Assembly (NCBI GenBank): GCA_964187785.1
Contig: OZ076409.1
Location: 27,592,001-27,656,000 of the forward strand
Source of the DNA: Amphiscolops sp. MND2022
Taxonomy: Eukaryota
Direction: 5' to 3'
Length of the DNA stretch: 64,000 nt
Position numbers and translations under genes: made by a program. Position 1 is the stretch's first letter. Each line of letters begins with the position of its first letter. Under the pieces are notes generated by a model. The model searched no databases and had not been told where the DNA came from. It saw nothing but the letters and a program-made list of their open reading frames with translations. Of this stretch, positions 8,176 through 45,000 are shown one piece after another.

Positions 8176-11100
8176 TCAGTCTTTCTTCCCTTTAGTCCCT
8201 TTGGACTTGGCTTTCTGGTTAGCGGAATTGTCACCTGCACAACGTGTCAGAGAGAGCGTAGCTTTTCCCAAAACTGAGCGAGGTGATGGAGAACTGTTAC
8301 TAGTAGTGGAACCACTGCCACAAGTGATATCTCCGTCATCCGGTAGCTTCTTATCATCAGGAGCCACAACTGAACGCTTGTACGCACTTTCAAACTTGGT
8401 GCAAAGAGTTGAACTTTTTGCTCCACTACCTCTCAAAAATTTCCATATGGAAAATTTACGGTCCTCCAGAAGCTCCTTCCTTCTTCCTAGTAGTCGAAAG
8501 ACTCTTGAAATGGCGCGAGGATCCTGGTACAAGCTCGAGACATTGGGCACTGTAGAGTATGAAAGCTGTATAGCCCCTATACAAGATCGAAGTGATTCCT
8601 CATCAGTACCCAATTCGGGTATCGGGATTACAAAGGGAGCTGGGATCTGTACCAATGGGGGAAGACACAAACTAGATAGCTTGAATAATTTATGTAACTC
8701 AGGCCGACATTGCAATTCGTAGTGAGAGACGAGGAATTGAAACCAATCCTCAACTTGTCCCATGTTGACTGTCCGGAATTTTGACACAAGAGATCGATAC
8801 TGGCTGACCGACTTTGTTTTCTCACTGAGGTTCAACCACCCAATCTCTACGAAATGACCAGTGAGACACTCAACGGCGGCAACATACTGGTCCTCGGATC
8901 CATGTAACATAACAACAGAGTCTAAACATGCAAGCCCTCGAATTAGATCGGATTTAATAATTTCGTGGGACAGCAATATCCCACAGAATGCCTTGCAGAA
9001 TGAAATAGTTTGTTCAACGAATTTACCAGGCCTTGGAAGTTTGCTTGTACTGACGAGATTGTGGTATTCGGAATTCAGAATGAACTCATCTGGAGACTTG
9101 AAGGGAAGATGACTTGGGTTGACTCAGGTTGATACTCAAATACTTCTTCCGATCGGAAATGTTACCAAGGAAATTGTCGGGTAAAATGTTTTGTAATTGA
9201 CTATATACAAAAACAGCGTACCGGTTTTACAATCGAAATCCGGCACCAAATTGATCACGGACCTCAGTGAAGGCTGAATTATCTGAAACACATGAGAAGG
9301 TTGGTCAAAAGTCTTCAATAAATGAAACGATCCTTCACCATTCTACGCTTTTACCTGAATGATTATACATAACTATGCGGATTCCAGCCGGTGACTATGC
9401 GTCACTATTCGGATTTCAGCAAATGATTATACACAACTATGCGGATTCCAGCCGGTGACTATGCGTCACTATGCGGATTTCAGCAAATGATTATACACAA
9501 CTATGCGGATTCCAGCCGGTGACTATGCGTCACTATGTGGATTTGAGCAAACGATCACACGCTACTATGCGGATTTCGGCCAACGATTATACGGCACTAT
9601 CCAACTTTCAGCTGACGAATGTACGGAACTGCATAGCTCAGTTGACTTTTGTACGTCACTATACGTCCTTCGATTAACGCACATGCTGCGCTACGGGGTA
9701 TTTACAATTATTAAAAGCACGTGCCTACTCTAGAGTGTAGTTATTCATCATTATGCGAATTTCTGAAAACGAGTATGAGTCATCATTCGGTTTTGGACTA
9801 CAATCATGCGTTACTATGCGGAATTTACAATGGTGTATATGCGACACCATACTGAATCCCGGCATCGATTACAATCCTACAAGGTGAAAAGAAATGCATG
9901 CTGAACAAAAATCCAAGATTTTGGGAAATCTACCTAGGGATAATAATTGCAAGCACTTTTAATTAAAAGAAAACAGAAGTCTTAATACAAAGAGCTTTAG
10001 ATCACAATCGAAATAGAAAAACAACTTTAGACTCTGCACTAACACTGATCGAGGACACATCTGATGATAAATAGCCGTGCCAAATAAGTGGTATCAAGAC
10101 GAAAACACTCGTCGAGGGTACTGGGCTGGAAACATAAAAGATGTATTAGATGAATAGATGCTTGAACAATGCGGATTATGGGAAGTAAATACTGACCTCT
10201 CTCATAAGAAACCGATAGGACGGCAATCGGGACACACGATTAAGGTGGTCCAGGACTTTATCCCAGTGGCTGGATAACAACTCGATCAAGATAGATGCTT
10301 CTCGGGGAGAATAGGAGAGGTCCAAGACGCACTGAAATACAAAACGAATTGAGCCTCAAAAGAAACGTATAATCTATTCTGAAAGAATCCTTATTAACGA
10401 AAATAGTTCAAGTACCTTGTGTAAGGTCGGAAGAGACTGTAGCCAAACCCGGTCCAAAGCTGTGCGAAGTTTCATTAGAAGGAAGTCAAGGATCGTACGG
10501 TGATTGTGCCTTTCCAAAATTTTCGATGTAGGAAGAGCAAGACATCTCTCCAGTTCATTTTGTCCAAAGCCATTGACGGAAGTAACTCGATACCTTCCGA
10601 GCAGAGAAGTTTTGAGACTGGAATTTAGCCTGTCAGGACAATTAACAAGGCTGACGCATGAAATGGAAGATTCAAAGATGCTAAGAAATGATGCGATAAA
10701 ATTGATGATTTTCTTGGGAATCAAGGTTCCTCTCGGTCCAGTGCCGAGGCAAATTTGGTAAAAAGACATTACCAGACCAAAAGTTGACGAAATCATGAGT
10801 GGTAAACTGGTCACTCTGGAAAGAAAGGGAGTAAGACCCGGAAGTTGTAATGGACGTGACCCCATAACTCAACAATTCACGGTACATGAAGACAAGTATA
10901 GCCTGTGAACATAATACTATTTACACCAGGAATATGTGCTATATAAAACAAAAAATAAAAATTATTTACAAATAACCGTTGTCGTTCCCAACTGAAGGAG
11001 GAAGCTTGAGAGTTTCCAGGGAATAAGCGAACTGTCTCATTCCACATCCCAATCAGACTGTCAATGTGCCCGCCATGACGTAACCTATGCTCCAGAATGC

Positions 11101-12322
11101 GGATCTGAGAAATGACGTCTTCGCTTGGGCTGGACGTAATGGTAAAATCCGGTAATTTGTCCTGCGCAACCATCAATCTACAAACATCTAACTGGGGGGC
11201 GATAGGGTAGGTCTCTTTTGCCGTTCTTCTGGCGGCCAATAGAGCGTTCCCTGTCAGCTCTTTTTCAAACTTGTCGTACAGGGGCAATCCTGGAATTTCA
11301 AGTCTAATGCGATGTTCTTTGACGAGATGAGAGTCGGTTTTAAAACTCAGTGATAATAACTCAAGAACACCCCTGCTCATTATTGACAGCTCCACACGGC
11401 AAACACGACACCACCATTTATAGGGAGTCTTGTTCCGATCAATTGGCCCGGTGGCAAAAAATTTCAAAACAGGATGCTTACGCAGCATGTGGACTCTCAA
11501 AGAGTATTTTGGACGTTGTCGCTTTGTCCTGACAGTAAAGGCTTCATCGCAACTAGATAAAGTGTTGACATTCTCTTGACTGGGTCCAGTATCTATAGGA
11601 TCGATGTTTTGAACGACACCTTTATCCGGAGATTGGGGGGGATCTTCAATCACATTCAGGGTAATGTTATCTGTCTCGTCCACCTCAGTCTGACTGATCA
11701 GCTCCCGTGGGATTCTGCCTAATACACTTGAAGGGGTGAAGGCTTCTTGCCGAGTGATAACTAGTTCTTGTGGTGTCGCGGTAGGAGGTCCTGATGTTTC
11801 TACTTTGGGACTTCCATTCTGTTCGGGTTCACCTGAATGTTCAGGGGGACTTTCCCCAGAAACCACCTCGGGAGGCTCAGTTGGGTCGGAAGCATCTTCG
11901 GAGCGTAAGAGAAAGGCAGTAAATCGGGGTGAATTGGATTGAGAGACGGGTGGCGTAACGGTGTTCTCCGGGTTACCCAATATTTTTGGATCACTAACAC
12001 TCATCAATGAAAGATCTGGTAACGCCGGAGAGATCTCAATTACTAACGGTTCAGCCTCTTCACCTTCCGCTCTATCGAATTTGTCGGGATCATGAATAAC
12101 GAGTTGACCAGATGAAAAAGAGGTGTTGAGTTCGTCAGCTAACACTTGTTCAATCCCATCGTTAGCCTTTGGTGGCGTGCTATTGGAGGGTTGAACCGGC
12201 GAGGATGGTCCAGCAACAGTGAGTTCAGCGACCTGAAGGGGAATATAGGTCCTAGTTGGGGACCTGGCAGGCGATTTTAGCGATGATCCAAGTTCAACTA
12301 AAACAAATGGGTTTATTATCAC
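8176..12322 (-). pseudogene. Antisense spliced accessory gene of A: disordered N-terminus, BED/C2H2-like finger, hAT-transposase-like body. Exons ~12322-10970, 10902-10416, 10331-10197, 10125-10044, 9282-8176
   Basis: GT..AG introns at 10969-10903, 10415-10332, 10196-10126 and 10043-9283. The spliced product aligns with the B and C genes. A few frameshifts and a stop are present. The start codon is uncertain. Confidence 0.8.
9360..9551 (+). repeat. 64-bp tandem repeat x3 (two ~32-bp TATGCG subunits) in intron 4 of the antisense gene, degenerate to ~9845
   Basis: tgattatacacaactatgcggattccagccggtgactatgcgtcactat.. starts at 9360, 9424 and 9488. Confidence 0.9.
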
Positions 12323-13074
12323 GATGATTCACGAATCAAACCACGATCAACAATTTCCGCTAAATTATAGACTGAAACAGGATACGGTAGAAAGAAATTA
12401 AAGTGGGCGGAAGTGATTGATATCAAACCGGAAGCTTAGTTGCTTCAAAAAATCAATCTTGATTTGAAGAAGATCGACCTTATTGAATAGTCTGGCCAGC
12501 TAATTAATTAAAACTTTTTTCTGATCAGAAAATCCAAATCAAAACTCGAAATTCTGAACAAACTATGAAGTGAACTTACGTTAAGTAATCGCAGTTGGTG
12601 ACTTGTAACCCCAAGAAGTGAGCTGTTTCCGCGGAGTTTGTTGTTGTCTTGACTTCCTCCGATCGGGAGAATCCATGGTATCGCTAATGCGGCTGATAAT
12701 CTCGGAGAATACAAATGGGGAATTACAATTGGAACTTTAATGATGAGAAACTAAAGAAGTGTAGATCGATGACTGAAGGAAAGAATGAAACTTTCTAACT
12801 GAAACTAAAAAGACTGCAACTGAAATTAATACAATACTAGAAACTTAAAAGACTGCAATTATGTACGGAATTAACAAGTTGACGTTGAAATTCAATAGAA
12901 GGCGTGGCGTTAAACGAAAGGCAAAAAGCAAATGAATGCTGAAATTTGCGAATTAATCCAGAAAATACTCTAACCTGATTGATCAATTAATTACCGTCCA
13001 TTACTGCCAGAATGGACGATTACGTAATTATCAAAATTAGCGACCGGTCAACGATGCAGATTTCATGAACGGCC

Positions 13075-13440: not shown

Positions 13441-14124
13441 GATGGTTTATCAACAAAATGCACTCTTATGCATTGATGAGCCAATACAGATGAACTGAGT
13501 GGAAATAAAGGATAAACTAGACCTGATGTTCTTTTACCTTTTGAGATATAATGCACTTTTCAAGTGCGGGACTTGAAACAAAACTTTGATGAACTATGAA
13601 TAAATGTGATATTTCACAAAATTTAAACTTTCAGTCCTGAAAAATTTCATTCATAAATGTAAGCCTCAGTCATGTAAATCTAGATATGTATATCAATTGT
13701 CACTTCATTTCTCTATCAATGGAAGTTATTAGTCATGAAATCCTTTGAAGTTAGTTTAGTTATGATTTTGTTTATATCTCATTAAAATGGTTCAACACTG
13801 TCAAGCGTCTTGGGTGAAGATGAGATTCTCCCCGAAAACTGAAGAAACACCTTAAATGGTAGATGTTTATATCGAACTAAAAGGAAACTTGACAATTTTC
13901 GTGGATTCAACAATTCCTGTCACACAAAGGACCCTATAAGGAAAACAAAAACCCCGAAATCATGACACTCAGTTTTTCTGCGGGTTTTTGTTATAAGCGA
14001 AAGAAACGGAAAAAACAATCTCCATATGGTCTTTTGACTCGCCCAAAAACAGTAACTCCAACTGAAACGAAAACTACCTTTAAACCTTACCTGAGAAAGT
14101 CATCCTACAACATAAGAAGAGAAT

Positions 14125-15182
14125 ATGAATAACCTGCAATTTACCCTTGAAGATAGCCCTTTGCTCTCGATTCAATCTCCTGGGATTGTAGATATATCAA
14201 GCGATTCAGGAGAAGAATTTGTCGTTCATCCGGATGATCTTTCCGAAATAGAGGAAAGATTCAGGGTTGGTGGACCAAGATCGGATATGTTGAAGGCATT
14301 CGTGGGTGCAACTTCGGCAAACCTTTTCACATCTGGACCAGAAGACCCCTCAATTGCTGAGACAATTGACACTGCTGGAACACAAATTGAGCGTCAGATG
14401 ATGGAAATCATTGAGGAGCATCAATTCAGTAGTGGGTCTTCATTAACTTCATTCATTGATACGGAACTGGAAGACTCACCCATGTCGCCATGGGAGTCAG
14501 CTGAACCTTCGACACGACCTGTAAACAGCTACGGGAGGCCAGCTGCGGCAATCCTCCCTACACCGAGAAGCAACAACCACGAGACGACAGTGGTCAATAG
14601 ACCCATTCCTACTTACCCGCCTAATTTTGCAAATACTTACCCAATTTATCAACCCCAACAAATCACTGACCCTACATACCACCAAGCAGATCACCCTGTC
14701 AACGGTATCCAACCTAGGACATTGGGCAACAGTGGAGCCTTCTCCGCTAACCCTAATGGTTTGCCTATATTTAGTAATGCACCAATAATGATCCAGATAC
14801 CTCCCCATGAAGGAAGCGCCCATGTTTCACAATTGATTACTGGACCTAATGCTGGACCCTCCCCTCACTTTCCGTTCCAAGCGAACATAGTACAAATCTA
14901 CTGCTCTTGCCTTTTCAAGAAAGACTGCAATATCGACTTTTGCCCCCAGTATTGCCAAACGTCGCTGGATTTTGCGATTGGTGTGGTAAATGCTACAATT
15001 TGATAGCACTTGAGACGCTGGGAGAGTACCTTATTGCAACCACTTATGACGGGGAGACGGTCAGGGACAGAGGTGTCAGGTCCCGTGCCTTTATAGATGG
15101 GTTCGAGGCTGCACTGTTCTCCTTTAAAGGTGCGGGACTGTCGCAGCCTCATGGGTGCTCTGGGTCTGTTCTGCAAGAGTAA
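14125..15182 (+). pseudogene. Accessory ORF-X of A (acidic/Pro-rich N-terminus, CxxC domain), one frameshift near 14830-14900, ending inside the 3' LTR
   Basis: ORFs 14125..15003 and 14907..15182. The C-terminal 58 aa align without gaps to element B ORF 18655..19473 (20 identities). Confidence 0.75.
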
Positions 15183-16767
15183 AAAGGAAAACGAAGAAGC
15201 AGCCTGAAAGACAAACCCAATTTGATGAAACTCAATAAACTACCTTCCCCCCTTTTTAATTCTTTGCTTTTATTGTCTCGTTGTTTACTCTAACCGATGA
15301 GTTAAGTCATGTAAATATTTATTTTATAGTTTCTTTGGTTGAATTGCGAAAGCCAGGTGTAAATTAAGACATGTTGACCAGGTTTTCTTAACTTTTCACC
15401 CTAATTATTGCTTGAAACATTGAGTTGTTTAGTTGAATTTAGGCCATAATCTCTGAATGGAAGCAATGATTAATCTAAACGAGACTTTTCAAATCAGTGA
15501 GTATGCGTCACAGTACGAAAATGTGAAAATGGATACACTTCATCATGCAGTTTGTAATTAATAATTATGCACTATCATACGGAAAATTTCTGACGCATAT
15601 ACTGCAATATGCGGATTTTAACCACCGCTTATGCGGCACCATGCGGAAAATCGTAATTTCCTTGATATGTTGTCACGGTGATAATTGCACGTCACTATGC
15701 GGAAAATCGACGGCGCTTATGCGTCAATATGCGGTTTTCCGAGTCTTTCATCATACGGTGCTATACCATTATTGCATTGTGATTATTCGTTGATATGCGG
15801 AAATTTAAGACCGTATATACGCCATTATGCAGTTTTCCAGGGTTTTTGTCGTAGTTGTACAATACTGGTTTCTGCTTGTCATGTAATGTATATTTAGAGT
15901 TATAAATAGAATTACGACACATGATGTAATTCTTTTTATAGAATATGATGACCATGACACCCATAAAAACGGGTGTAATCCACACCATTTTTCCCTTGTG
16001 CTCAGGACCTTAGAACCCAATCATTCTTTGAAATAACTCTCGTTGAAACCAGTTGATAAAACCTACACTCCAAACCACTGTAAAAGCAGTTTCTCATAAT
16101 CAACAGTTGTCTCATTTTCCAATTTGTTTTGTTGAAAATCTCAGCTGAATTCAAATTCTTCCCTAGCAAACCCAACACATTTTTCACTTGAGAACAATGG
16201 GAAATAAGAGAAACAGAAGATCTAGAAGACATGAAACACCATCGCCTGACCGAGAATTGAGTGAAGCACAAGAAGAAACACCAATGCAAGGTAATGAAAC
16301 TTTAACTAATGTTAGTACTGTTATTCAGGAACCTTTAGGTGAAAACGAAATCAGATCTAGTCTGATAGAACCTAGTCAAATCAGTAACGAAATCCAAGTT
16401 TGGACAGAAAACTTCGAACAAAAGAACAATGATAGGATTATGAAAATGAGAAAAGAAATGGAGAACAAGTTTGATGCAATTTTGAAAGAAATAAGAACAA
16501 GCAAAACAGCATCAACAATAACAAACCCTAGGTCTGAACCAAATGGAATCTACAATTTGCAACCTTCGGGATCCAAAAATGATAAGTCTAGTGGAGTACG
16601 CGCATCTAATATAGAAAACTCAGATACCGAAAATGAGGATGATCATCCCCTCAAGGCCTCCGATATTAGAGAATTAAGGAATCCTGCTAGACCACTTTGT
16701 CAAAATGTACCGAATCTAGACGAAACAATAATATCAGAAGGGGACTCCGAGGAGGAGGATTATCACA
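15139..16767 (+). repeat. 3' LTR of element A (~1.63 kb, boundaries inferred)
   Basis: Starts TGTCGCAG after GCGGGAC, at the same ORF-X codon (G-L-S-Q) where the B LTR starts (G-V-S-Q). Ends GATTATCACA in the same codon phase as the B, C and D LTR ends. No second copy is present to confirm. Contains a TATGCG cluster at ~15500-15830. Confidence 0.7.
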
Positions 16768-16796
16768 CAACACGTTATTGGTTTTCGAGGCTTTGA
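16197..16796 (+). CDS. LTR-encoded Gag N-terminal segment of A, reading out into the flank
   Basis: Basic start MGNKRNRRSRR, a coiled-coil-like segment (RIMKMRKEMENKFDAILKEI) and an acidic end, positioned like the LTR ORFs of B, C and D. Confidence 0.6.
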   Translation: MGNKRNRRSRRHETPSPDRELSEAQEETPMQGNETLTNVSTVIQEPLGENEIRSSLIEPSQISNEIQVWTENFEQKNNDRIMKMRKEMENKFDAILKEIRTSKTASTITNPRSEPNGIYNLQPSGSKNDKSSGVRASNIENSDTENEDDHPLKASDIRELRNPARPLCQNVPNLDETIISEGDSEEEDYHTTRYWFSRL

Positions 16797-17087: not shown

Positions 17088-17783
17088 TTAGACTAAAAAA
17101 TGACTTAATTTGTTTTCTTTTTCGGGCAAAATAGGGATGCTGTCGCGATTTTGTTCGCTATTATTAGAGTCTGTTGAACTCTCTCTAGACCTCATTCTAC
17201 TATTTTCCTGTGTGAAACAAGTTCTGGGACGGTTTTCCCACGATTTCTGAGGATTTCCTACTTCGGCGTTCCGTTGTAGCCCACTGGGCCTCCGGTTCCT
17301 TATGGTGAAATCGGTTGACCTTGGGCTAGGATGCAGCCCGTTGGACCCTCGGTCCACCGTGGTGAAAGTAGGTCTCCCCTGCACTTCTAGTGTATTTTGG
17401 ATAGAAGGAAGCACTATACTTGTTATTGCAGCTGTGATAGCTTCCTGGATTTGAGAATTCAGGCTGGTTTTGACCTCATTGAGTTTTATAGACATTTGAA
17501 TGGAAATTTCTTCGTTTATCAACCTAGTGGTCTCAATTGCAATTTCGCTGTTTTCTCTGCTATTGGAATTAAGTAAAGATCTAAAATCTTCTCCTATAAC
17601 GTTTGAACTTTGTTGTGGTCTACTAGACCCTGAGTCCAAATTCACTTCATTTTCGCTAATATTATTTTCTTCATCATCTCTAGAGTAGCTTCCAAGCATT
17701 ACGTCAACATTTTTTACATCGGACAGCATGTCTAACTGTCTAGAACGTCTTTCTTTAGCCTTTTGCTTTTTTGTTGAAGGCAT
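17088..17783 (-). CDS. LTR-encoded Gag N-terminal segment in the 3' LTR of B, reading out into the flank
   Basis: MPSTKKQKAKERRSRQLDMLSDVKNVDVMLGS is homologous to the D Gag start MPSTRRQKAKARKSREMDMMSDVDNLDVMLGS. Confidence 0.7.
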   Translation of the reverse strand: MPSTKKQKAKERRSRQLDMLSDVKNVDVMLGSYSRDDEENNISENEVNLDSGSSRPQQSSNVIGEDFRSLLNSNSRENSEIAIETTRLINEEISIQMSIKLNEVKTSLNSQIQEAITAAITSIVLPSIQNTLEVQGRPTFTTVDRGSNGLHPSPRSTDFTIRNRRPSGLQRNAEVGNPQKSWENRPRTCFTQENSRMRSRESSTDSNNSEQNRDSIPILPEKENKLSHFLV

Positions 17784-18746
17784 TGAAGAAAATAAACACA
17801 ACAACAATGAATTGACAGAACAAACTAAAGTTAATATGGTTGGTGAATGAAATGTACAGATTGTACTGAAAGTAAAATTGTGATCGCAATTAATGCAGTT
17901 TGAATTGGATTGTGACTTCAAGTTGAGTTTCCAAAGAATGATCCCTCTGGTCTCCTGGGCCTTGCTATAAATACCCTATTCTGCATGACAAGCAAATTTA
18001 CAGGCATCATGTTACTAAATATAAACATGACAAACTAAAAAAAGTAGCAAATATGGTTCCGTCAGCATGACGTCAATACATCAAAGAGCAAGATGGGGGG
18101 CTTTGGCGGTTATGCCAACAAAGTGAGAAAATGTTTATAGCGACCTGTAAGTACATTCAAGGTTAATCTACAACACTACATGTTTCCAGAATACATAATT
18201 TCATGTTATTTAAGCTTTTCACCATAGCGGACGTTAAGTCCGCGTGGCCACACTCAATTACAGCACTAGCAGCACTTGTGCGTTAATTTCACCGTGGCAG
18301 ACATTCTGTCCACGGAGCGTCACTAATATGCTGCACTCTGATTGGTGTAAAATACTTGTACGGCGAGTACAGTGAATTAGAAGAAGCGTTCATTTGAACG
18401 CGTTTCCTCTTCCGCTTACTATTGCATCATATTATTTCATCAATTTACAGACTATCTAATAAATTACGTCAGCATTTTGATACCAAAACAGGCACAGGAT
18501 AAACTACTAAACAGTGAAATACATCCTTGTAGACTAAAATTATTATTTGCACTGAGGCCGCAAGGACCATAAGTCTTTCATGGTGAAAATCAAAATAGTA
18601 AAAATAGCAACAAAATACTTGTAGTTTATATTACCTATTAGTCTTTGCCAGTGTTTAAATGGGAAGAACTCCTGGGGGAGGGTTAGAGTTATCTCCGTCC
18701 AACGTGATTTGATAAAAATTGCCATCAGAGGCGGCAGCCTGCGACA
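17141..18746 (-). repeat. 3' LTR of element B
   Basis: Matches 29019-30621 and is preceded on the minus strand by CCTAGGGGAG (PPT position). Confidence 0.95.
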
Positions 18747-19473
18747 CTCCCCTAGGGATAAAGAGCACTGTACCTTGGTCCATTCCGGCTAAGTAGGCGT
18801 CACGTCTCCTCTGTCGGTTGTCATAACTCTCTCCTCTATAAGTGGTAGACTCCAAGTATCCAAGGACAGCAGTCTCCTTTATTTGTTCGTAACTTCTTCC
18901 GCACACTATACAATCACCATTTTGTGCTTGGTTCGGCTGGCCACATTGTGACGCTATGCGGACACTCAGTCCTTGTATATGCGAATTAGGCTGGAGCGGC
19001 ATCTGACTTTGCGTCGTCGGTGTGTATTCGCGATTGTTGTAAATTGGGCCACGCTCGTGTGGTGGAGGAGATTGAGGCGAGTCAACTATAGGCGTTAATT
19101 GCCCACAATATTTTATGGGTGGGCTCCTGCTTCGGGTAGCTGTACTTGGCCCTGCTCCCCTGTCCAGCGGGTCTGCCTGGCTGTCCACTAGTCGCATCAT
19201 ACGATCAAAATCTTCCCAAGGAAAGTTAGGGTAAGTGTCTTCTGTACTTTCTGTCAACTCCACGGTCATTTTGAGTCCTGCAACTAGTCCTTCTGGCTGG
19301 ATTGGTACTTGCCGGCAACACGCGATCACTTCTATATCACTATCTTCAGTGTCGTCCCGGGTAGCACTGACTGACTCAATGTCCACTTCCATTTCTTCAT
19401 TAGAAGAGTAGTAACTAGGACTGACTGGAAGAGCTGAGAGGTCGTCTAGAAGGAACGGTAGATTCATTTCCAT
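18655..19473 (-). CDS. Accessory ORF-X of B (272 aa, intact), last ~30 codons inside the 3' LTR
   Basis: Open ATG-to-stop frame containing CIVCGRSYEQI..YLESTTYRGES..R..R..AYLAG, homologous to A ORF-X. Confidence 0.8.
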   Translation of the reverse strand: MEMNLPFLLDDLSALPVSPSYYSSNEEMEVDIESVSATRDDTEDSDIEVIACCRQVPIQPEGLVAGLKMTVELTESTEDTYPNFPWEDFDRMMRLVDSQADPLDRGAGPSTATRSRSPPIKYCGQLTPIVDSPQSPPPHERGPIYNNREYTPTTQSQMPLQPNSHIQGLSVRIASQCGQPNQAQNGDCIVCGRSYEQIKETAVLGYLESTTYRGESYDNRQRRRDAYLAGMDQGTVLFIPRGVSQAAASDGNFYQITLDGDNSNPPPGVLPI

Positions 19474-29015: not shown

Positions 29016-29018
29016 TCT

Positions 29019-31819: not shown

Positions 31820-31930
31820 ATAGGATCTAAAGAATAAGATCTAAACTTTAGTGATTTTAGATCTTATTCCTTTTAGATCTTATTCCCGCCCTGAAATTTT
31901 AGATCTTATTCCCTTTAGATCTTATTCCCT
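31820..31930 (+). repeat. Short tandem repeats (TTTAGATCTTATTCC)
   Basis: Four to six copies of agatcttattcc / agatctaaa. Confidence 0.7.
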
Positions 31931-32427: not shown

Positions 32428-34199
32428 TGTCATTCCAGCATGATGGAAATATAATCTACTAAATATCTGTAATGTAAATAATATGTCTTATGTACTTAAA
32501 TATGGGCAATATGGTGTCATATAATAAGATCTATGGTTGTGAGCAACCCTACGTTACATGTACCTAACTCCCTATTTCCCAGTGAGATTTGAGCTATTTA
32601 TCTATTTAATACTGAGCATTCTAGTTCCGTTTGTCCGCAATTCATGATCGTGCTAATAAGTAAATGATGCTACTTTATATTTTAAATGGCTTGTCACGAG
32701 AAGAGAAAGTAGTTTCTCGGTCAAACTGGACCACCATAACCAATAGACGAGAATGACACTCGCTAGGGAACTCCCGCCTCAAAGGAATCTAGCGCGACAA
32801 GCCTCCTCTCTTTGAAATATACGAAACGATGAAATAACGATGTTATTGGTGCTAGAATTCATAATTTAACTCAATCTAACAAGCTTCATCCATATTACAT
32901 CGTCTAACCGTGACCAAAACGCCAGAAAACGAGAAAATTGAAAAACGATGTAAAAGCAATGAAACTACTTGATTGAATACTTGTTGCCATATGTTTCATC
33001 ATTTGTGCATCGCTCACGCTTCCAAAACCTGAAAACAGTGCTAAAATAGCTAACGATGGAAAAACGATGGAAATCTTTCATCGTTTTCTTGTCTATAGCT
33101 AAATCACGCTTCCAAGACCTGAAAACAGTGCTAAAATTGAGAACGATGGAAAAACGATGGAAATCTTTCATCGTTTTCTCATCTATAGTCAAAATTCACC
33201 TATATTGATGATAAAGCGATGTAACTACTCCAGAACTATATGCAGTGCTCCCCCCACAACTCATTCCATCGTTTTCACATCTAGTTGATCGCTTTAACAC
33301 TAGAGCGAAGCTCATTCACCATTCCTGCATCCGCAGCCACACAAACAGAATCAACTAGTGAAAACGATGCCGAAACGACAAAACTACTGAATCCCGTATC
33401 TCCAGTTAACTTAGCGCTATTGATTCATCGTTTTTACATCACATTTGTTTAAAATTGATTTAATCGATCCCCCGTTAGATTGTACCCCAGTTTGATGTAA
33501 TTTCGACACTTGCCGTGACTCAGACGGTGCCTATTACAAGTTGCTAATTTGAATGCATTAAATATTCATAGTAATTGGTTTAAATAGATTAAGCGCGCAA
33601 TTTCAATTGGTAACCCTCCAGCGACATGCAGTACAACCGGTCACGTGACCAAGTGCTAATTAGCACCTTGCTAACCAACCAATGAGAACGAAAAACGATG
33701 GTAAGAATTGAGTCTTACCATCGAGCTGGAGGTAGGCTACCTCAGAGACACAAGATAACTAACGCTACATTGTACAAGTACTTGTATTACTCATCCTTTA
33801 TACGTATCTTACTCCAGATTTTACAACAATTCAACTCTTATCCGCAATAGTCATCTCTTCTCCATCATATGAGTTCTGATTCCCAAATAACATTAAGAAA
33901 CAGGAAAACAATAACTTGTACTACTTCAATAAATTCAACGAGACCTACTCACGAAGAGGAAACTATTAACATGGAAAATAACATTGAAAACGTGAATGAA
34001 CAAGCCCAGTCAGGACAAAATTCGTCGAATTCTGAGATAGATTCTCAGAGGGTCAATGACGAAAGGTTTAGCCACATACAGTCAGAAATGTCTATGCTGA
34101 AGGCCATGATGGAAAAGTTGCTAGAACAAAACGAAGAGAGAAATAGACAAACGGATGCCAATGCCGCGGCATCTTCGTTCGCGGTACGGTCGTCCAACA
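32428..34199 (+). repeat. 5' LTR of element C
   Basis: Direct repeat of 46869-48640, roughly 99% identical by eye. Confidence 0.97.
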
Positions 34200-35356
34200 T
34201 GGTGACAGGAGTCAACAGGACTCACAGAAACCAACGCAACTACTTCCACGACGAAGAAGATGAAGATGATTACGAAGACACACCAAGCAACTCAACGGAG
34301 ATTGCATTACTCAACGCCATCCAAGATCTACCAAGGAAATTGCAGAAAACAAACACGAAACTCCTGCAAGCCCACGTTCCCAATTTCCGAGGCTCTAAAG
34401 ACAAATACAACGAATTCGAACACCTCTTACTTAACCATTTCCGACCCATCGCCATTAAGATCACAGGGGAAGATAAAATACACTTCTTCCAGAGCTTACT
34501 CCGCGATGAAGCCATTGGCTTTTGCCAAACCATCACCATCAACCCAACCACCACTCTACAGGACGTCCTGCAACTATTCAGAAAAGTGTTCGCAAAAGAA
34601 GATATGAGAGAAGTCGCTCGCTACAGAGGGAATGAGGCCAAAGACGACCCGACCACCCAGACATTCGGAGATTTTCTAAAAAACCTCAAGAAAATAGCCA
34701 TGCAAGCATACGGCGACGAGGCCGACAAATGCATCAAGATGTTCCTCTTCGGGAAATTACCAATCGAAAGCCAACAAGAGCTGACAATGGCGAACAAAGA
34801 AGACAGCAGCCCCGAAGAAATCAAAACCTACCTACTCAGAAAATACCAATATCAGAACGTCCTACAACAACCTGCAGCGACATATCAGCCATTCAACCAG
34901 ATGTCTGATAACAACTCCAAACGAGAATTCACACGCTCCGACCAATCTCAGCCCGAATCAGACACTAAACGATTCGATGGAAAATGCTTCTACTGTGGTA
35001 AACAAGGCCACAGGAAACAAGAATGCAGAGGACGCCAAAGAGATGAAGCTAATGGCATTAACAAACCAGACGCCATACAACCTACCAAACGGCAAGATGA
35101 AGATAAGCCAAAATACAACCCAAAACTGGTATGCCAGATTTGCGGGTGTACTGGCCACTCAGCCAGGGACTGCAGAAAAAGAATCCCAAAGCAAACGAGC
35201 ACACCCTACGGACAACTACCACATCAACGAACAGATGACCAAGAGAACAAAGAACGACGACGAGAATTAAAACAACAACAGCGCCCAATGAACCGAATGG
35301 AAATACAAGACAACGATGAAGATCCATCCTCAGAAGGAGAACAGGAGTTTCAGTAA
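33869..35356 (+). CDS. gag: Gag of element C (495 aa, two CCHC knuckles), first 110 codons inside the LTR
   Basis: CFYCGKQGHRKQEC and CQICGCTGHSARDC, a capsid-like central region, and an open frame across the LTR/PBS junction. Confidence 0.92.
   Translation: MSSDSQITLRNRKTITCTTSINSTRPTHEEETINMENNIENVNEQAQSGQNSSNSEIDSQRVNDERFSHIQSEMSMLKAMMEKLLEQNEERNRQTDANAAASSFAVRSSNMVTGVNRTHRNQRNYFHDEEDEDDYEDTPSNSTEIALLNAIQDLPRKLQKTNTKLLQAHVPNFRGSKDKYNEFEHLLLNHFRPIAIKITGEDKIHFFQSLLRDEAIGFCQTITINPTTTLQDVLQLFRKVFAKEDMREVARYRGNEAKDDPTTQTFGDFLKNLKKIAMQAYGDEADKCIKMFLFGKLPIESQQELTMANKEDSSPEEIKTYLLRKYQYQNVLQQPAATYQPFNQMSDNNSKREFTRSDQSQPESDTKRFDGKCFYCGKQGHRKQECRGRQRDEANGINKPDAIQPTKRQDEDKPKYNPKLVCQICGCTGHSARDCRKRIPKQTSTPYGQLPHQRTDDQENKERRRELKQQQRPMNRMEIQDNDEDPSSEGEQEFQ
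34200..34211 (+). promoter_or_regulatory. Primer-binding site TGGTGACAGGAG (tRNA-Leu-like) of element C
   Basis: TGG start directly after the LTR-terminal CA; identical to the D PBS. Confidence 0.85.
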
Positions 35357-38300
35357 AGCCACATTTTCACTCCGCGAACAATCAAAGTCCGCACCCACAC
35401 TCTGACTTCAAAACTCACTCGACTCATCAAACTCAACACAATCGTCATCAGAGGTCTTGGCAGCCCTCTGGTGATTCCAGCAAAGCAGACGAAGTCTATC
35501 TGCGAAGATACCGGAAACCCGATGAACAACCGATGAAAGCGATGAAAACCACCAACAGATTCACTCCATTGGAAAATTCACTTGATGAACAAACGATGAA
35601 CTGGCATAACGACGCATTGAGGCCTGCGCACGATGCCAAAGAGATGTACTCACATCTACAACAGACGGACCGACTCTCAGCTGATGACAAAGCGACAAAA
35701 CGGCTTAGTAGTAAAACACATGCAAACGACAAAAATAGTAGTACCAAAACTAAAAAACATGCAACCAATAATCAATTTCACGTACTTAGTCCCACATTAC
35801 ATTTGAATAAAAATGATAAGATGTTGTTTGTTCCCCTCCAGTTTAACAGCTACGAAAACCAAGGTCTTTTCGACACAGGAGCAGTGCAAAGCGTACTTTC
35901 GGAAGCAGAATTACGCAAATTCACCGCTGCTCATCCCAAAGCAGTACTAGACGAATTACCACCCCCTAACTTTAAAGTTCAGATAGCTAACGGCAACTTA
36001 GTCCCCATTCGAAAACAAGTCCTCTTACGCTTTTTTATAGCTGGAAAAGTCTTCGAAGAAGTCTTTTTGGTCCTCCCAACATTGGGAACGATCCTGATCG
36101 GAATGTCATTTTTTGAAAAGTATTCTGTCAACCTTGACATCAAAAATCATCTAGTTCACTTTCCTAACCATTTGATGTCAATGCAAGTGAGACAACAAAC
36201 AAACAAAAAATTCAAAACTGGGTTAATTGATTTGTATTCCAGCAGCAGAACGACCATCCCTCCCCACCACCAAGTACTGATTGAGGTTCACAGCGACGCG
36301 GACATATCACGTACAACCGGCACGGTAGAAGGGACTCCAGCATTCATGCGCAAGACGTGTCTCTTGGTGTCTCCAGCAGTGGTTGACCTAGACGATGGAA
36401 AAACGATGATTCAGGTCACCAACCACAATGAGCACGTGTACACACTCGAAGCCAACACCAACCTGGCAAACTTTAGAATACCAACGCCCCACCAAGCCGC
36501 CAACATCACACCGATGCCAGTCGGACACCTGAAGTTGATCACCGATCACCCCGACGATGCAGCAGCAGTGATCAATCAACTCTTTGTGAACCCCGAGATG
36601 AAGTCTACAAAACGGTACCCGACACCAGAGACGTGTAGTGAGCCAGACAAACTCAACAAGATCGAACGACGCATTTTCGATGAAATTCTGGCCCTCAGAG
36701 AACTGGAGAAGCTTGATCCCGGCCGCTTCCACGATGAGCGAGTCAAGTTCCCGCAGAACTTCAAGTGGGACGAATCACTTCTTTCTCCGTCTCAACAAGC
36801 TCAGGTAGAGGAGTTGCTGGTAAAGTACAACTCCATTTTTGATAGACATCGTTTAGACATCGGCATGAACACTGATTTTAAAGTAAAATTAACACCCCAG
36901 CATGAAGAACCGGTGTACTCCCAAAGTCTCCCTACCCCTACTAACCTAAAAGATGACTTGCTTGTAGAATTAGCGTTAATGCAGGAGTACGGGATTATAA
37001 CTACTCTCCCTTACAGCAAATACTCGTCACCGATATTTGCACAGCGTAAACCGAATGGTAAACTAAGGATTTTAGTTGACTTGCGGAGAATCAACCACCT
37101 GATCAAGAACGATTACGGAGAACACAACCACCCAGTCACAACTGTTTCAGACGCTGCTCAACACATGGCCGGGAAAAAATATTTCTGTAAACTTGATTGT
37201 TCCCAGGCCTACCACTGCATTCCAATGGCTGATGAGCAGTCAGTCCAACTGTTGTCTTTTAACTTTGGATCCCGTACTTTTGCTTTTCTTAGACTAGCTC
37301 AAGGTCTTAACCGTTCCCTTTCAGCCTTCACCAGCGTAGTCCGCGAGTACTTGGACCCCTTGGTCAAAGCGGACCGCTGTGCCCAGTATGTTGACGACAT
37401 AGGCATAGCAGCAAATACGCCTGATGAGTTGATTGAAAATTTAGAACATGTTTTTCAGCAGTTGTCCAAAGCTGGTTTGAAACTCAGCATGAATAAATGT
37501 GAATTCGGACAACAACAAATTGAATACCTCGGCAAATCAATTTCTAGCACTGGAATAGCACCCATCGAAAAACGAATAACTGATTATTTAAAGAAACTCA
37601 AACCTCCCAATTCAGTTAAAGCTCTCCAACGGTACTTAGGATTTGTCAACTTTTACAGGTCCTACATTCCCCGGTTGGCAGACAAAACAGCCGTTCTTCA
37701 CGAATTAATCAAAAAGACACTACTTTTAAACTAGAACAACGTCACAAAGATGTAATTTTTGACTTTAACGAAAGTTTACTCAAGGCTACTAAACTGTCAT
37801 TGAAACTTCCCCTTCCGGATAAACAATTAGTAATCATGTGTGACGCGAGTGAACATGCAGCAGGTTATGTCCTTTTAATAGAAGACTACTCTGAAACACA
37901 ATCGGGTAGCTTGAAGAAGTACGCACCAGTTGCTTTTGGCTCTAAGAAATTTCAGGGTGGACATATGTCATTAACAATGTACGCTAAAGAGTTTTTAGCC
38001 ATACACTTCGCGTTCGACGAGTTCGGCCACATTCTATGGGGTGTAAAGAAACCTATAATTGTAATGACAGATAATAAAGCACTCACCCGTTTCTTTCAGG
38101 CTAAACACATACCACCGTCACTTTGGAATTTTTGCGACCAGACGCTTCAGTTTAATTTTATTTTAGCACATGTACCAGGTGTAGAGAATCCCGCAGCGGA
38201 TAACTTTTCCAGGTTGGAAATTCGACCTGAAGATCGTGTTCATCTAAAATCAACTTATTCCATTCCAGTACACCATATAGAAATCGAAATCGCCTCAAAG

Positions 38301-40496
38301 ACGCCAAAACAGGAGGAAGACGAACCAGACTACTTTCCTCCTAGCGAAACACTGAGACAGAAGAGGTCACACGATGCTAAACCGATGAAAGTGATCAACT
38401 CTGAGACAGTGACGATCAATGATGGCAAACCGATGAAAACAGTTGACGTAGCGACGACAGCCGGTGACGATGACGAAACGATGAACTACGTACACTCCAC
38501 ACCACTGGCCTCTGAGAATGATCACACAAGCTCCCCTCAGATTTACCAGCTAATGACTGACGCTCACCTACCAGGGTACCTTAGATTCATCGTAAAAACA
38601 TCGTTACTACACCCGGTAACGAAGGAAGTTAGCCCCCCAGGGGGAGTCTATCTAATTTTAACCCAAAAAACGAATAGTGACATTCAACTTATGTTAAAAA
38701 TTTTGTCTGGCGAAACAACTTTGACCCACTCTGTGAACTTGATGTCAACGTTTTTCCAAAAACTTCACTAAAACAGAAAACGCCTTGAAAATGTAAACGG
38801 AGTTCTGTACCGTATCTTTTATGACCATACTGGCCTTGAGTCCCATAAACAAATCGTCGTACCTGATCAAGTGATGTTAGAAATAATCAGGTCCTTACAC
38901 AGTAACACTGTACAGGGACACCCCGGTTCTAAAAAGATGTCACATGAACTACGCCAACGATACTACTCTCCAAGTCTTGCTGAAAAAACACAAAAAATAC
39001 TCGAAAGCTGTGAAACTTGCATGCGATCGAAATCGACGAACGAATCAAAGATCCGTCCACCGGTACAGAAAATATACGACCCGTGTAACGGCCCTACTGA
39101 TCTGATGGAAGTTGACATAGTCGGACCACTGCCTGCATCAAACGGATTCACACATATCCTGACCGCAGTCGACGTATTCTCGCGTTATTTGTTTGCTGTA
39201 CCGCTACGAAAACCCGATACACCATCCGTCGTTAATGCTCTACTGTCGGTATTCGCCAAACACGCGTACGTCCCAACGCATATCCTGACTGACAAAGGAT
39301 CCGTGTTCACTGCCGAATTATTCCAACAACTGCCCAAAGCCATTGGCATTGAAATCTCCCATGCAACTATAAAACATGCACAAACCATAGGAATGGTTGA
39401 GAGAAGTCATGCAAAACTTTAAAAGATCCTAAAAATACATGTGAATGTAGACAGACCTCAATGGGACCGCTATGTCGACATAGCAATCATGGCCCATAAC
39501 ACAACGTACCACACTTCTCTGAAATGTTCACCAACTGACATCTTTCACGGACGCACTCCATACAACGCTTTGGACCTAAAATACTCTAACCCTGAAAGAC
39601 GATTCGACACCAAGTTCGGAGACGTCAACCAGATCCCAAACCGCATGAACGAAATCTACCGAAACAACACAGACAACATAGTAGCTGCATACCACAAGTA
39701 CAAAGCTTATTATGACAGAAAAGCCAAAGCACAACCGCTCAAAGTGAACGACCTTTTTTTCCTACTTGACCCCAAATACGACTCTCAGGGTTGCAAAGAA
39801 GAGTTCGAGACCTTCCACTGGAAAGGTCCGTTCAAAGTGATGAAAGTGCTGTCCGACAGTAACTACATCATACGAAAGGTAGGAACGTTCAAATCACAAT
39901 GCGTTCATCGTATACGACTGAAAATGTTCAAACCAGAGTTCCCTGTAGAAGACGTGGACATCAATAACCAACCAGTATACGCTGACACGGACCGAACGAA
40001 AGGTTCTGATATTTTCGATCCCCACATTCCATCACAAACAAAATTAAACTCGGACGAACCAGAAACTGATGAAGAAACACCAGTTGAAAGAGTCATCCGA
40101 TTCAAATTGCCAGATTATCGGCAGGCAATCAAACACGACAGACCATTGAATCGACTACCGAACCGACTGTCGTTATCACCACAACCGGAAATAATCATAG
40201 ACGACCTGCCCCGAAACGCCCCACAGGTACAATTCAATGAAAATTATGAGATAAATCTACAGGAAATCACTCAAGATACAGCAAAACAGCCAGAACCATC
40301 AACAAAACCTGCCAACACCGAGACACCCCAACAGGTGAACGACGACGAAACGCCAAATCTGATAGCAACGAGGACAAATAAAAGCAAATATAGTCTACGC
40401 GAAAATCCTCAGCCGAAACGCTACTCAGACTTCCTAATTCATGAAATCTCAATTGCTCGAAGCGCCCTACGCAAAACAAACACTACTCTGCAGTAG
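35320..40496 (+). pseudogene. pol: pol of element C (protease, RT, RNase H, integrase), -1 frame relative to gag, with a frameshift near 37730 and stops at 38769 and 39420
   Basis: Protease LFDTGA; RT QYVDDI; RNase H MCDAS..AKEFLA..MTDN; integrase GHPG..CETC, VDIVGP, VDVFSRY, LTDKG, VER. Confidence 0.94.
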
Positions 40497-40499
40497 AAA

Positions 40500-42066: not shown

Positions 42067-45000
42067 TCAAAATCGATGCTCTCCACCAATTTCCAGACTC
42101 TCAGCCCTTCCTCCATCCGACGTGAAACCTAACCGCTCCAAAACTGCACCACGATACCCATCAGGAGACTCTCTGCCGATTTCATCCCACAAACTGCCTA
42201 TCGTGACGTTTCGCAAATCTTCCGCTCTTCCAATCACTTCGCTACTTTCCATCACTAATCCATCAGGAATACTCTGTAGACCCCGCACATTTCGGGCCTC
42301 ACACCAACTGAGAATTGTCAGGAAAATACTTCTCAGGGACTCTGAAGATAAAGTTGGCAAGCAAATATTGACCATCTGAACACTTTGAATTACACTGCCG
42401 CTCAAACATAACGACAGCTGCATCATCCGCTGCAAATTAGCATCGTTAGTACCATACTGCAACAACTCCCTATCATGGACATCCGATGCATACTCACTCG
42501 TATGGTCATCTCGAAATTGTCTGACAAATTGTACATAAGATTCAGACATCGCAATCCTTTCTTCTTCAGCTATAACTCCATTTCCCTCTAGAGCCTCAAG
42601 AAAGTAGCCAATGGTTTCCTGCATTTCATTGACACTTCCGCGTCAGCACATCAGGACACCAACATGCTAGGGCCATATTGACTTGATCAGAAATCTGTGG
42701 CATCCGTAGCAAGTTCATAGCAATGGTAATCAGGAACTCCTCAACAACGGTAACTGCCGCTCGATACTCCCCCCCCACAAGCATAACAGGCGCGATGAGC
42801 TTCGAAAGTCCGATACAACTGCGACTCTCTCGCTGCACTTAACCGTAGATCAACTACTTGAAAACCAGCCCAGCGGTGCATCTCAAATGATTCCGGTACT
42901 GTCGCAGGTTGAGCAACCATCAAACAAAGCTCTCGGACGGTACTCAGCAATTCATTGACCCCATACAATCCATGATGCATACTTCCACTGAAAGTCTGTT
43001 TCATGTTCTTGAGTACTAAAACAAAACGATTAGAACACAACACGTCAATGACCAGATGCTATTCCGATGTACACTGTATAACAACGTCCTCACCTAGTAC
43101 AGACCTAACAAATGACTCGAAATAGTATTTCCACGCCACCTGATATTTTTCCGATGATAACTATAGACAGTTTCCCCCAACCCCCACATAACACGACGTA
43201 TAATCGATTAAACCTGTATAAACGTAATTACATGTAACAAAAGCAAAATCTAACCAATAGAGTATACCACTCCCTTAGCATGCAATTTCAAAGCTAGCCC
43301 TGGTTCCTGCAAGATTAATAATTCCATCCGATTGGGATCTACACTTCCTCCCAACTGGTCAAGACGCTGTATCAACGCCACAAGACTGTCCCACGACTTA
43401 TGTAACTCCTCCAGGACAGATACAATCTCCCAATTAGAGATTTCACGGGCTACGACACACTGAAATAAAACACATTACTTACACACCTCACTTCAAGTTT
43501 CCATGACAACCACCACGTCTTCCCAACTCCACTAGTCTTGCCGAACCAAAACCAAATATATGAACTCACTGACATGCAGCAAAACAGGACATCTGCGTAA
43601 CACAGGATCCGTCAAACAATCGCGAAGCTTCCCCAGAAGAAAGTTCATCACCACATGAGTTTCCTGCCCGACGAACACAGACAATCCAGCCGTTGTGATA
43701 ATCTGCAATACGGCATGCAATTGTAACGGATTCAGCTGCAACCCGCGTCGGCCGCCATCTCCTTCTAACAACCCTCCAACAGTTGAGAGACATCCACAAC
43801 TGATCCCCACTGGGACAAAGTCATCCACCACACAACTCCAGCAGTCCGCGAGCCACTCAGACACTCGCCTCTCCCAGTCGCCAGTAGCTACGACCTCAAA
43901 CAAGACCACACCCTGCACTGCATCTGCCTCAGCCACACTGACAGAGTAACGAACGACACTCCTACCCAACTCCAGGTATAGTCCAACAGGATTTTCACCA
44001 TATAGCGAAGCTGCGAGTGTGCGGACGACATAAGGCCACACTCCGAAGATCAAAAGCGCCTGGAAAAGGTAAAAACATATTCCAAATCACCAATCAGCCT
44101 CACGACAATAGCACACAAAATACCCCCTCAGAACCTAGACCATTTCCCCGTCTATAGACACAGCATGAAGGTCATTAGGAAATTCCAAACATGTAATACC
44201 AAGTATACATGTAATTTATGAAACATAATTACCACTACAACTTCCTTCCGGCATCCGCCACCGAAAAGACTTCTATACGACACGTCCGTCGTAGCCAAGG
44301 AGTCCCATAAGCTGGTAAGGTCCGTAACGTCTCCACCTCGATAGAGCGCGTCAACAACTACGCAAAGAAACATTCTAAGGCTGCGCTCCGTATCAGGCAC
44401 CTCCTGCATGGTCGAACTCCAGATACTTCCACCTCCGGACTCAATCCGAAATACGTCCTGCACTGACAACGAAGGACACACCTCGACGTCTGGGAGAGAT
44501 AGCCCGCGTAACTCCTCCACCATCTGAGCTGCTTCTGCAACTCTCATCACAGCACCGGTTGGCCTTCGTAGCAACAGTCCACGCCGTAGACGCACTAGGC
44601 AATCCAGTTTATGATGTATCACACCGCGACTGCTGACCTTCAGATCGCAACGGCATAGAAGGCACCGGACATACGCATCGGACGATTGATGCTCCCGAGC
44701 AAAACCAAGTGAAATTCCTGCATAAGGGTGCAGAAACCAGGTCGCTTTAATGCTATTCAATGCCACTGAAACAAACCAGATGGAAAACCGATGCAACCAC
44801 CCTACTGACCGCAGGACAGAAGGGACTTCAGTTCTAAGTAACTATAACGATGAAAAAACGATGTTTCAACTGCATCAGTTGAAGAAAACTCCCACGATGC
44901 AAAAACGATAAAAACTCTGAAAACGAAAAAATGAAAAAAACGAAAGAACAACATCGAAAAAAACCTAAATAATCGATTAAGTAGTCAAGAAAACTGAAAA

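Follow-up and report, generated by a model that had tools for sequence, protein, structure and literature searches.

A Predicted Intron-Bearing Antisense Gene of Likely hAT Origin in a Clade of Ty3/gypsy Retrotransposons

Introduction

Retroelements are held to be intron-poor, since their RNA is copied after splicing. How can a gene with five to seven introns be retained by a large clade of retrotransposons with long terminal repeats (LTRs)? This question is raised by a stretch of 64,000 nucleotides (nt) from Amphiscolops sp. MND2022 (GenBank assembly GCA_964187785.1, contig OZ076409.1, positions 27,592,001 to 27,656,000 of the forward strand), hereafter called the window. It contains three Ty3/gypsy elements, labeled A (+), B (-) and C (+) after the orientation of their pol regions, each of which carries an additional gene on the strand opposite to gag-pol, situated past the end of pol and ahead of the 3' LTR. 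The initial annotation of this DNA proposed that the antisense orientation shields the introns of this gene, as sense-strand introns are lost during reverse transcription. The latter holds as a general rule but is not universal, since Ogre elements are described as retaining a sense intron (PMC4408406). The shielding is likely, and the introns are indeed antisense to gag-pol within LTR-bounded elements.

Here, we describe this antisense gene, its relatives in the same genome, and its predicted product. We consider it probable that one Ty3/gypsy clade carries an antisense multi-exon gene, the introns of which persist by virtue of their reverse orientation and the product of which would be a catalytically dead, hAT-type DNA-binding helper protein.

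Structure of the Antisense Gene

The predicted gene contains five coding introns in A, five in B and seven in C, and introns 1-4 of A and B are all of the GT..AG type (Table 1). None of the three copies in the window is intact, each being disrupted by frameshifts or stop codons of its own. An alignment with other copies and an unbroken B-type copy bear out that A and B share four introns at equivalent codons with phases 0, 0, 0 and 1, and that exon 3 comprises 135 nt and exon 4 82 nt in either element, as had been noted from the window alone. In all three families, exon 2 measures 486 nt in the majority of copies, a regularity absent from the initial annotation.

For C, introns 1 and 2 and the absence of intron 3 had been read correctly, but the end of intron 4 had not. 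With the 41-nt intron originally proposed (acceptor at 43214), the last exon is open over 16-50 codons in 19 of 20 C rows and for 250 codons in the remaining one, and the sequence past this acceptor shows a one-base difference between subfamilies. If the acceptor is placed at 43016, with donor and phase (1) unchanged, the last exon comes into register with that of A and B and comprises 304-329 codons in 5 of 20 rows. The introns listed initially are borne out by the sequence, with the end of one corrected; those located upstream had been overlooked, of which A and B each contain one and C contains four. These six upstream introns are all in phase 1, with GT and AG present in 36-39 of 37-39 copies.

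Some further features of the introns were observed. The first intron of the antisense gene contains the conserved non-coding motifs ACTTCCGGAAG, CAGGAAGTG and TAGCTGGCCAG (20560-20660 and 12300-12500), instead of which the C introns contain repeated CATCG motifs. Related tandem repeats of 32/64 bp are found in intron 4 of A (9358-9630) and upstream of the A gene (13092-13308). The length of the A-type intron 4 spans about 370 to 850 nt among copies.

Conservation of Splice Sites, Exon Lengths, and Reading Frame

Copies were collected via the antisense gene itself in two samples. The first consisted of 60 loci found by DNA similarity, from which five truncated loci (L040, L049, L050, L062 and L081) were removed before alignment with the window copies. 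The second consisted of 80 further loci found by protein similarity of the last exon and picked to spread over identities; their exon ends were predicted from the peptide register without requiring GT or AG. Exon lengths in the second sample are partly fixed by this method; the independent test is provided by the alignment of the first sample and by the long open frames after splicing.

Conservation of the splice dinucleotides had been named beforehand as a check, and GT and AG were found at 88-99% of the predicted junctions in 138 copies of this genome. In the first sample, GT and AG were present, respectively, at 68 and 71 of 72 junctions in A, 79 and 79 of 80 in B, and 57 and 58 of 60 in C. 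Forty diverged A/B-type copies of the second sample had GT at 148 and AG at 145 of 160 in-register junctions, five of these places being without intron 4, whilst controls shifted by 3-9 nt gave 40/960 and 24/960. Two further sets of 20 copies yielded 53/60 for both dinucleotides (shifted control 56/360 for GT and 16/360 for AG), and 49/55 for GT and 53/55 for AG (23/330 and 4/330). Overall, the shifted controls amounted to 1-16%.

The introns themselves have diverged extensively. Across eight subfamily pairs, exon identity was 67-81%, with 0-2 gap columns in the alignments, compared with an identity of 38-66% and 15-88 gap columns for introns. Unbroken copies give frames of 1,300 residues after predicted splicing. 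Rates of non-synonymous (dN) and synonymous (dS) substitution were determined for 36 unbroken copies; broken copies were excluded here and from the trees discussed below. Saturation of dS was seen in 127 of 136 A pairs and in 107 of 120 B pairs, with dN at about 0.3, and dN/dS was 0.05-0.27 in five of the six bins with dS above 0.1. Two values weigh against strong constraint, i.e., a dN/dS of 0.51 in one bin (four B pairs) and of 0.34-0.57 for near-identical pairs, and the count comprised unbroken copies only. Conservation of splice sites, exon lengths and frame while synonymous sites saturate requires selection on a spliced antisense product. Thus, of the proposed long-term antisense expression, the selection on a spliced product stands, whilst the transcript itself is deduced from the sequence. 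Since the divergence of subfamilies accrues through rounds of reverse transcription, the constraint would have acted on transposing lineages, and the product would therefore serve the element. Together, these data indicate that this is almost certainly a real antisense gene under selection, with splicing as predicted.

Carriers and Intron History

Pol was found opposite and adjacent to the last exon in 40/40, 19/20 and 20/20 of the further copies, i.e., in 79/80. At 16 loci of other gypsy-type lineages, the antisense gene was found in none within 10 kb past RNase H. A reverse transcriptase (RT) tree of 34 rows (FastTree), rooted on other gypsy elements of this genome, has the topology C,((A,B),D), in which D is a fourth clade of carriers (supports 0.93, 0.96 and 0.77), and a tree of the antisense protein (34 rows, FastTree) has the same shape. 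Hence, the antisense gene co-descends with RT at the family level. Inside the families, there is poor agreement between the trees of the antisense protein and of integrase (Spearman 0.27 and 0.33; conflict in 5 of 29 supported splits), which speaks against a strictly joint inheritance. The divergence of the antisense protein is 6-8 times that of integrase. Such a rate is as might be expected of a factor in conflict with host silencing. The poor agreement and the excess divergence point to recombination between subfamilies and faster change.

The clade also shows a varied intron history. In D, exons 2 and 3 form one exon of 621 nt, exactly 486 + 135, which is open in 15 of 20 copies; the exon structure of six D loci was read from open frames. 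A B sublineage (L100, L103 and L106) lacks intron 4 with single-base precision, with near-precise but frameshifted absences in L107 and L108, and the same exact absence is seen in 5 of 20 D copies, which belong to two separate lineages (L204/L208 and L211/L213/L215). Parsimony gives a single loss of intron 2, in D, and three or more losses of intron 4. C alone lacks intron 3. Because C branches off before all other carriers when the RT tree is rooted, this fits one gain or one loss at equal cost. The clean loss of an intron needs a spliced template, from which we infer, indirectly, that antisense RNA was once spliced and met RT. Thus, the precise absences at four places in the tree point to spliced antisense RNA in the past.

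The protein family is probably not confined to this genome. A profile of the last exon matched 671 clusters at 50% identity. The best 150 of these 671 are all at most 419 residues long, which is the size of the last exon, and 53 of these 150 are less than 40% identical to the nearest A, B or C copy used; one cluster is 29% identical to its best match in this genome. Such low identities suggest that the family occurs in other organisms. Scans of metagenome and viral contigs revealed no locus of the antisense gene. Three distant homologues from other assemblies (P0209, P0222 and P0146) read through the site of intron 4, and P0209 and P0222 apparently also through that of intron 3; further lineages with few introns may exist.

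In this genome, other gypsy lineages (L246-L252) contain a sense open reading frame (ORF) of about 790-810 codons after pol, possibly env-like, and an ORF of about 350-370 codons. At L253:-, an unrelated ORF of 1,344 codons lies opposite an RNase H match; it may belong to a neighboring element.

Nature of the Predicted Protein

The predicted protein consists of about 750-1,300 residues with a low-complexity N-terminus, a C-x2-C..H-x5-H finger, and about 550-640 conserved residues. In the alignment of copies, C-x2-C..H is invariant and the second H nearly so. This C2H2 finger may be BED-like. The only Pfam match to it was zf-C2H2_ZN292, in 4 of 13 sequences and below the cut-off of that family.

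A model of exon 2, built from 35 sequences (predicted local distance difference test score, pLDDT, 63.8; predicted template-modeling score, pTM, 0.58), shows the order helix-b1-b2-b3-a-b4-a. In Foldseek, chains of the Hermes hAT transposase occupied ranks 1-6, 8 and 10 (best E 0.0015, probability 1.00), followed by retroviral integrases, and VIA-align confirmed an RNase H-like fold. Exon 2 thus encodes, according to the model, an RNase H-like core, a fold by itself unspecific to hAT. The last exon gave a poor, all-helical model (pLDDT 49) without a Foldseek match. A relationship of this part to tyrosine recombinases was considered and rejected, as the best VIA-align Z score was 5.5 and the N-terminal domain of XerD (Z 5.4, root-mean-square deviation, rmsd, 3.2, 72 aligned) falls in the noise band. 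A sequence profile of the last exon (100 sequences) matched the C-terminus of ZMYM1/THAP12-type hAT proteins over 130 columns (E 0.0094), and a separate run gave a score of 20.6, with 17.9 as the highest score of ten block shuffles. Strand 1 and this C-terminal match are about 310 residues apart, compared with about 300 in a hAT protein. At the places where catalytic residues would be expected, chosen from the model and by analogy, acidic residues are present in no more than 20 of 34 rows where strand 1 ends and in no more than 5 of 34 where strand 4 ends, and the residue opposite hAT E606 in the profile alignment is non-acidic. The Hermes ranks, the weak hAT match of the C-terminus, the spacing and the non-acidic catalytic places together make a catalytically dead hAT-type transposase likely.

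Several results count against this assignment. No Foldseek match reached E 0.001, and the template-modeling score by query was 0.36. VIA-align put generic RNase H-like folds first (CoaX with Z 8.5, rmsd 3.1 and 85 aligned; ParM; Hsp70), and Hermes was not among the 50 matches listed in either run. The C-terminal profile match had a probability of 4.3%, was weaker in the separate run (E 0.14) and disappeared with other builds of the last-exon profile, and exon 2 gave no such match. Exon-wise Pfam scans returned no family that names the protein and, in particular, no hAT or BED family. Five other acidic positions are kept in 33-34 of 34 rows, which would be compatible with a shifted active site. 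Other searches were likewise negative: hidden Markov models of the antisense protein matched none of 405 ORFs from 45 hAT loci of this genome and none of 50 ZMYM-type hAT proteins, a DUF4371 search of this genome gave no match, sequence searches of the PDB gave nothing meaningful, the first hits in an Atlas search (0.80 and 0.86) were below the bar, and two word-index searches among longer proteins gave no match, which is weak evidence. On balance, the evidence for an origin from a hAT transposase is suggestive, and we regard such an origin as fairly probable.

Expression Signals

The ATG of the antisense gene is located about 0.9-2.5 kb inside from the 3' LTR. CTTCCGG-type motifs in the first intron of A and B, presumably ETS-like, may belong to an antisense promoter or to a divergent sense ORF. 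A canonical poly(A) hexamer was present within 300 nt after the stop codon in 1 of 47 copies, with about 11 expected from shuffles, which counts against the proposed explanation. On the pol strand after the gene, a poly(A) signal was present in 41 of 47 copies, most of which is explained by base composition (34 expected).

Proposed Origin and Alternatives

We propose that an intron-bearing hAT transposon landed backwards in an ancestral LTR element. In the sense genomic RNA, its introns would be present as reverse complements, with CT..AC rather than GT..AG at their ends, so that the spliceosome would ignore them, RT would copy them whole, and they would remain in the element. An internal promoter near the 3' end would drive a separate antisense pre-mRNA, which would be spliced and translated, and occasional recombination of the spliced RNA, or of complementary DNA made from it, with the element would cleanly remove a single intron. 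The protein would have retained its zinc finger and fold and lost its cutting residues. It would most likely be nuclear and bind DNA or chromatin of the element, where it could aid transcription as an activator, shield the element from silencing, or contribute to targeting. Judged by analogy, a role as DNA-binding helper has slightly less than an even chance. A still more specific history can only be put forward tentatively, viz., a single ancient domestication of an intron-bearing hAT gene, spliced in antisense, that yielded a disarmed, fast-evolving DNA-binding factor protecting or activating its own copies, with the intron losses resulting from RT acting on its own antisense mRNA.

Alternatively, the gene could be real and spliced, with a host gene or a different DDE/RNase H-fold family of, e.g., the Mutator, P or Kolobok type as its source instead of hAT. 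This would suit the generic fold reported by VIA-align, where the ISCth4 transposase reached Z 6.7, the presence of retroviral integrases after Hermes in Foldseek, and the modest best E value of the hAT profile match. However, Hermes accounts for 8 of the first 10 Foldseek rows, and the finger, RNase H core, helical region and hAT-like C-terminus occur in hAT order and spacing, although hAT was the transposase family with which profiles were compared. We consider this alternative unlikely.

Another possibility is that the protein has retained nuclease or transposase activity, with which it would mobilize or cleave the element via DNA or assist integration. The strong purifying selection on the whole core and the five conserved acidic positions would agree with such an activity, but the expected catalytic places are non-acidic in most rows. 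Insertions of hAT transposons generate target duplications of 8 bp. The TG..CA LTRs and 5-bp duplications of B and C are the mark of an integrase, and the mobile unit seen is the LTR element, which makes this activity very improbable.

Antisense RNAs have been discussed as regulators of LTR elements (PMC7264820), and the RNA itself might matter here, as self-limiting double-stranded RNA, as a trigger of small RNAs or in export control, with the protein being secondary; codon-level constraint, in-frame fixed exon lengths and an invariant zinc finger are signatures of a protein, and we give this possibility very little weight. Finally, a functionless nested insertion, with introns kept merely by their reverse orientation, would account for the broken state of all three window copies and for the copying of reverse introns irrespective of function, but it is hardly credible, since passive carriage cannot hold GT/AG and exon lengths while introns and synonymous sites saturate, and since the breaks are private to single copies, as expected after insertion. 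Thus, descent of a dead helper protein from a hAT transposase carried backwards in the element remains the reading that we prefer.

The Three Elements of the Window

The order of Pfam domains, protease-RT-RNase H-integrase in C and RT-RNase H-integrase in A and B, assigns the elements to Ty3/gypsy. The LTRs measure 1.6 kb in B and 1.77 kb in C, both with TG..CA ends and 5-bp target duplications. For A, a second LTR copy was not found within the window. In the B copy, the 5' LTR runs straight into pol (29016-29064), and most of gag and the protease are absent. In the LTRs, at 33851-34199, 48292-48640, 17975-17141 and 16167-16769, a gag-like frame starts, which leaves a stub of it in each 3' LTR. 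The sense extra ORFs of B (19524-18658, -) and A (14116-15000, +) start divergently from the antisense gene, and a shared promoter region is possible. Element C is surrounded by a satellite array with a repeat of roughly 172 bp (31930-32427 and 48641-51550).

Table 1. Positions in the window of the predicted antisense gene and of other features of elements A, B and C.
Element	Feature	Position	Strand	Basis
A	First coding exon, 97 nt, ATG start, in-copy stop	12580..12676	-	8-copy alignment
A	Upstream intron, phase 1, with conserved CTTCCGG-type motifs	12298..12579	-	GT 37/37, AG 37/37 copies
A	Exon with low-complexity region and C2H2 zinc finger	10970..12297	-	Alignment
A	Intron 1, phase 0	10903..10969	-	GT..AG, alignment
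A	Exon 2, 487 nt here (frameshifted), RNase H-like core	10416..10902	-	Alignment, model
A	Intron 2, phase 0	10332..10415	-	GT..AG, alignment
A	Exon 3, 135 nt	10197..10331	-	Alignment
A	Intron 3, phase 0	10126..10196	-	GT..AG, alignment
A	Exon 4, 82 nt	10044..10125	-	Alignment
A	Intron 4, phase 1, 761 nt, tandem repeat at about 9358-9630	9283..10043	-	Alignment
A	Last exon, frameshift near start in window copy, helical domain	8176..9282	-	Alignment, model
B	First coding exon, 16 nt, ATG	20474..20489	+	Alignment
B	Upstream intron, phase 1, conserved ACTTCCGGAAG / CAGGAAGTG motifs	20490..20664	+	GT 37/39, AG 36/39 copies
B	Exon with low-complexity region and C2H2 zinc finger	20665..22710	+	Alignment
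B	Intron 1, phase 0	22711..22802	+	GT..AG, alignment
B	Exon 2, 488 nt here (frameshifted), RNase H-like core	22803..23290	+	Alignment, model
B	Intron 2, phase 0	23291..23422	+	GT..AG, alignment
B	Exon 3, 135 nt	23423..23557	+	Alignment
B	Intron 3, phase 0	23558..23628	+	GT..AG, alignment
B	Exon 4, 82 nt	23629..23710	+	Alignment
B	Intron 4, phase 1	23711..23780	+	GT..AG, alignment
B	Last exon, 378 open codons	23781..24919	+	Alignment
C	5' part, ATG at 45922, four phase-1 introns	44766..45922	-	Alignments
C	Upstream introns	45879-45803, 45670-45600, 45503-45372, 45046-44766	-	GT/AG 38/39, 37/37, 36/36, 37/37 in 38-39 copies
C	Zinc-finger exon	44233..44765	-	Alignment
C	Intron 1, phase 0	44060..44232	-	Alignment
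C	Exon 2, 486 nt, open	43574..44059	-	Alignment
C	Intron 2, phase 0	43460..43573	-	Alignment
C	Exon 3+4 fused, 205 nt, without intron 3; last 27 codons in register with A/B exon 4	43255..43459	-	Alignment
C	Intron 4, phase 1, 239 nt, corrected acceptor	43016..43254	-	Alignment
C	Last exon, frameshifted in window copy	42067..43015	-	Alignment
A	pol (RT, RNase H, integrase), split over three frames	3831..7978	+	Pfam RVT_1, RT_RNaseH, Integrase_H2C2, rve
A	Sense extra ORF ahead of 3' LTR, protein without Pfam match	14116..15000	+	ORF; likeness to B ORF judged by eye
A	Probable 3' LTR, approximate ends	15139..16769	+	Inferred from terminal motifs resembling B and C LTRs
B	3' LTR	17141..18746	-	97.5% identity to 29016-30621; TG..CA ends, GCATC target duplication
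B	Sense extra ORF extending into 3' LTR, protein without Pfam match	18658..19524	-	ORF
B	pol (RT, RNase H, integrase)	25186..29064	-	Pfam
B	5' LTR, inner end fused to pol	29016..30621	-	Repeat pair
C	5' LTR, then TGG motif resembling a primer-binding site	32428..34199	+	99% identity to 46869-48640; TATAT target duplication
C	gag (zinc knuckle) and pol (protease, RT, RNase H, integrase), several broken frames	33851..40493	+	Pfam
C	3' LTR	46869..48640	+	Repeat pair with 32428..34199

Comparison with Known Systems

Among transposases, those of the hAT superfamily (Hermes; ZMYM1/THAP12-like) contain a C2H2 finger, an RNase H-like core and a helical region in the same order as predicted for the protein described here. 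In contrast to these, the antisense gene lacks a Pfam hAT match, its catalytic places are not conserved, and it is carried by a retrotransposon instead of by its own inverted repeats or a host genome. Domesticated hAT genes are exemplified by DAYSLEEPER and the ZBED genes.

HBZ of human T-lymphotropic virus 1 (HTLV-1) is a spliced gene. HBZ and AS1 of bovine leukemia virus (BLV) are antisense products with regulatory functions that originate at the 3' end of a retroelement (PMC11963269, PMC7264820). They differ from the product described here in that they are encoded by retroviruses, are expressed from a promoter in the 3' LTR, and are unrelated small proteins, whereas the first coding exon lies 0.9-2.5 kb inward of the 3' LTR in the elements studied here.

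Additional antisense ORFs between pol and the 3' LTR, known as aORF-3R, have been described in plants. The literature lists gene23 of Grande in maize, RIRE2 in rice, Retand/TRP28 in Silene, and ORFs with a PMD domain in Tat elements; it describes gene23 as having its own promoter and encoding a nuclear protein, proposes a transposable-element origin for Tr28, and relates PMD to domains borne by Mutator-like elements (PMC7264820, PMC11963269, PMC4408406). These ORFs occupy the same site and orientation in Ty3/gypsy elements as in the clade described here and are kept in most copies. We found no sequence relation between them and the antisense gene, exon-wise Pfam scans of which detected neither Transposase_28 nor PMD. 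They further differ from the gene described here, with its 5-7 predicted introns, its length of up to about 1,300 codons, its precise intron absences in particular lineages and its likely hAT origin. The word "intron" is absent from the available text of the Retand paper (PMC11963269). The brtn gene of Boty-like elements in Botrytis cinerea is likewise described as an additional antisense gene in a Ty3/gypsy element (PMC8365987, PMC4227169). Looser parallels are the extra ORFs of rotifer elements (PMC5408684) and the internal promoters of Oikopleura Tor elements (PMC4402516).

A review from 2020 states that the origins of most aORFs are unknown and urges a search for antisense and spliced transcripts (PMC7264820). 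A literature search, which had most subscription papers (e.g., Steinbauerova 2011, Zhao 2011) outside its scope, yielded no report of an antisense gene that has multiple introns or derives from hAT in LTR elements. The present family offers a likely answer to the question of aORF origin, i.e., capture of a DNA transposon, with one mobile element tamed by another. Its numerous copies, its resolved tree, four or more precise losses and an RT that travels with the gene also make the clade a test bed for intron loss mediated by reverse transcription. Thus, compared with the known systems, the layout of the antisense gene is of an ordinary kind, whilst the number of its introns, their dynamics, and its likely origin are unusual.

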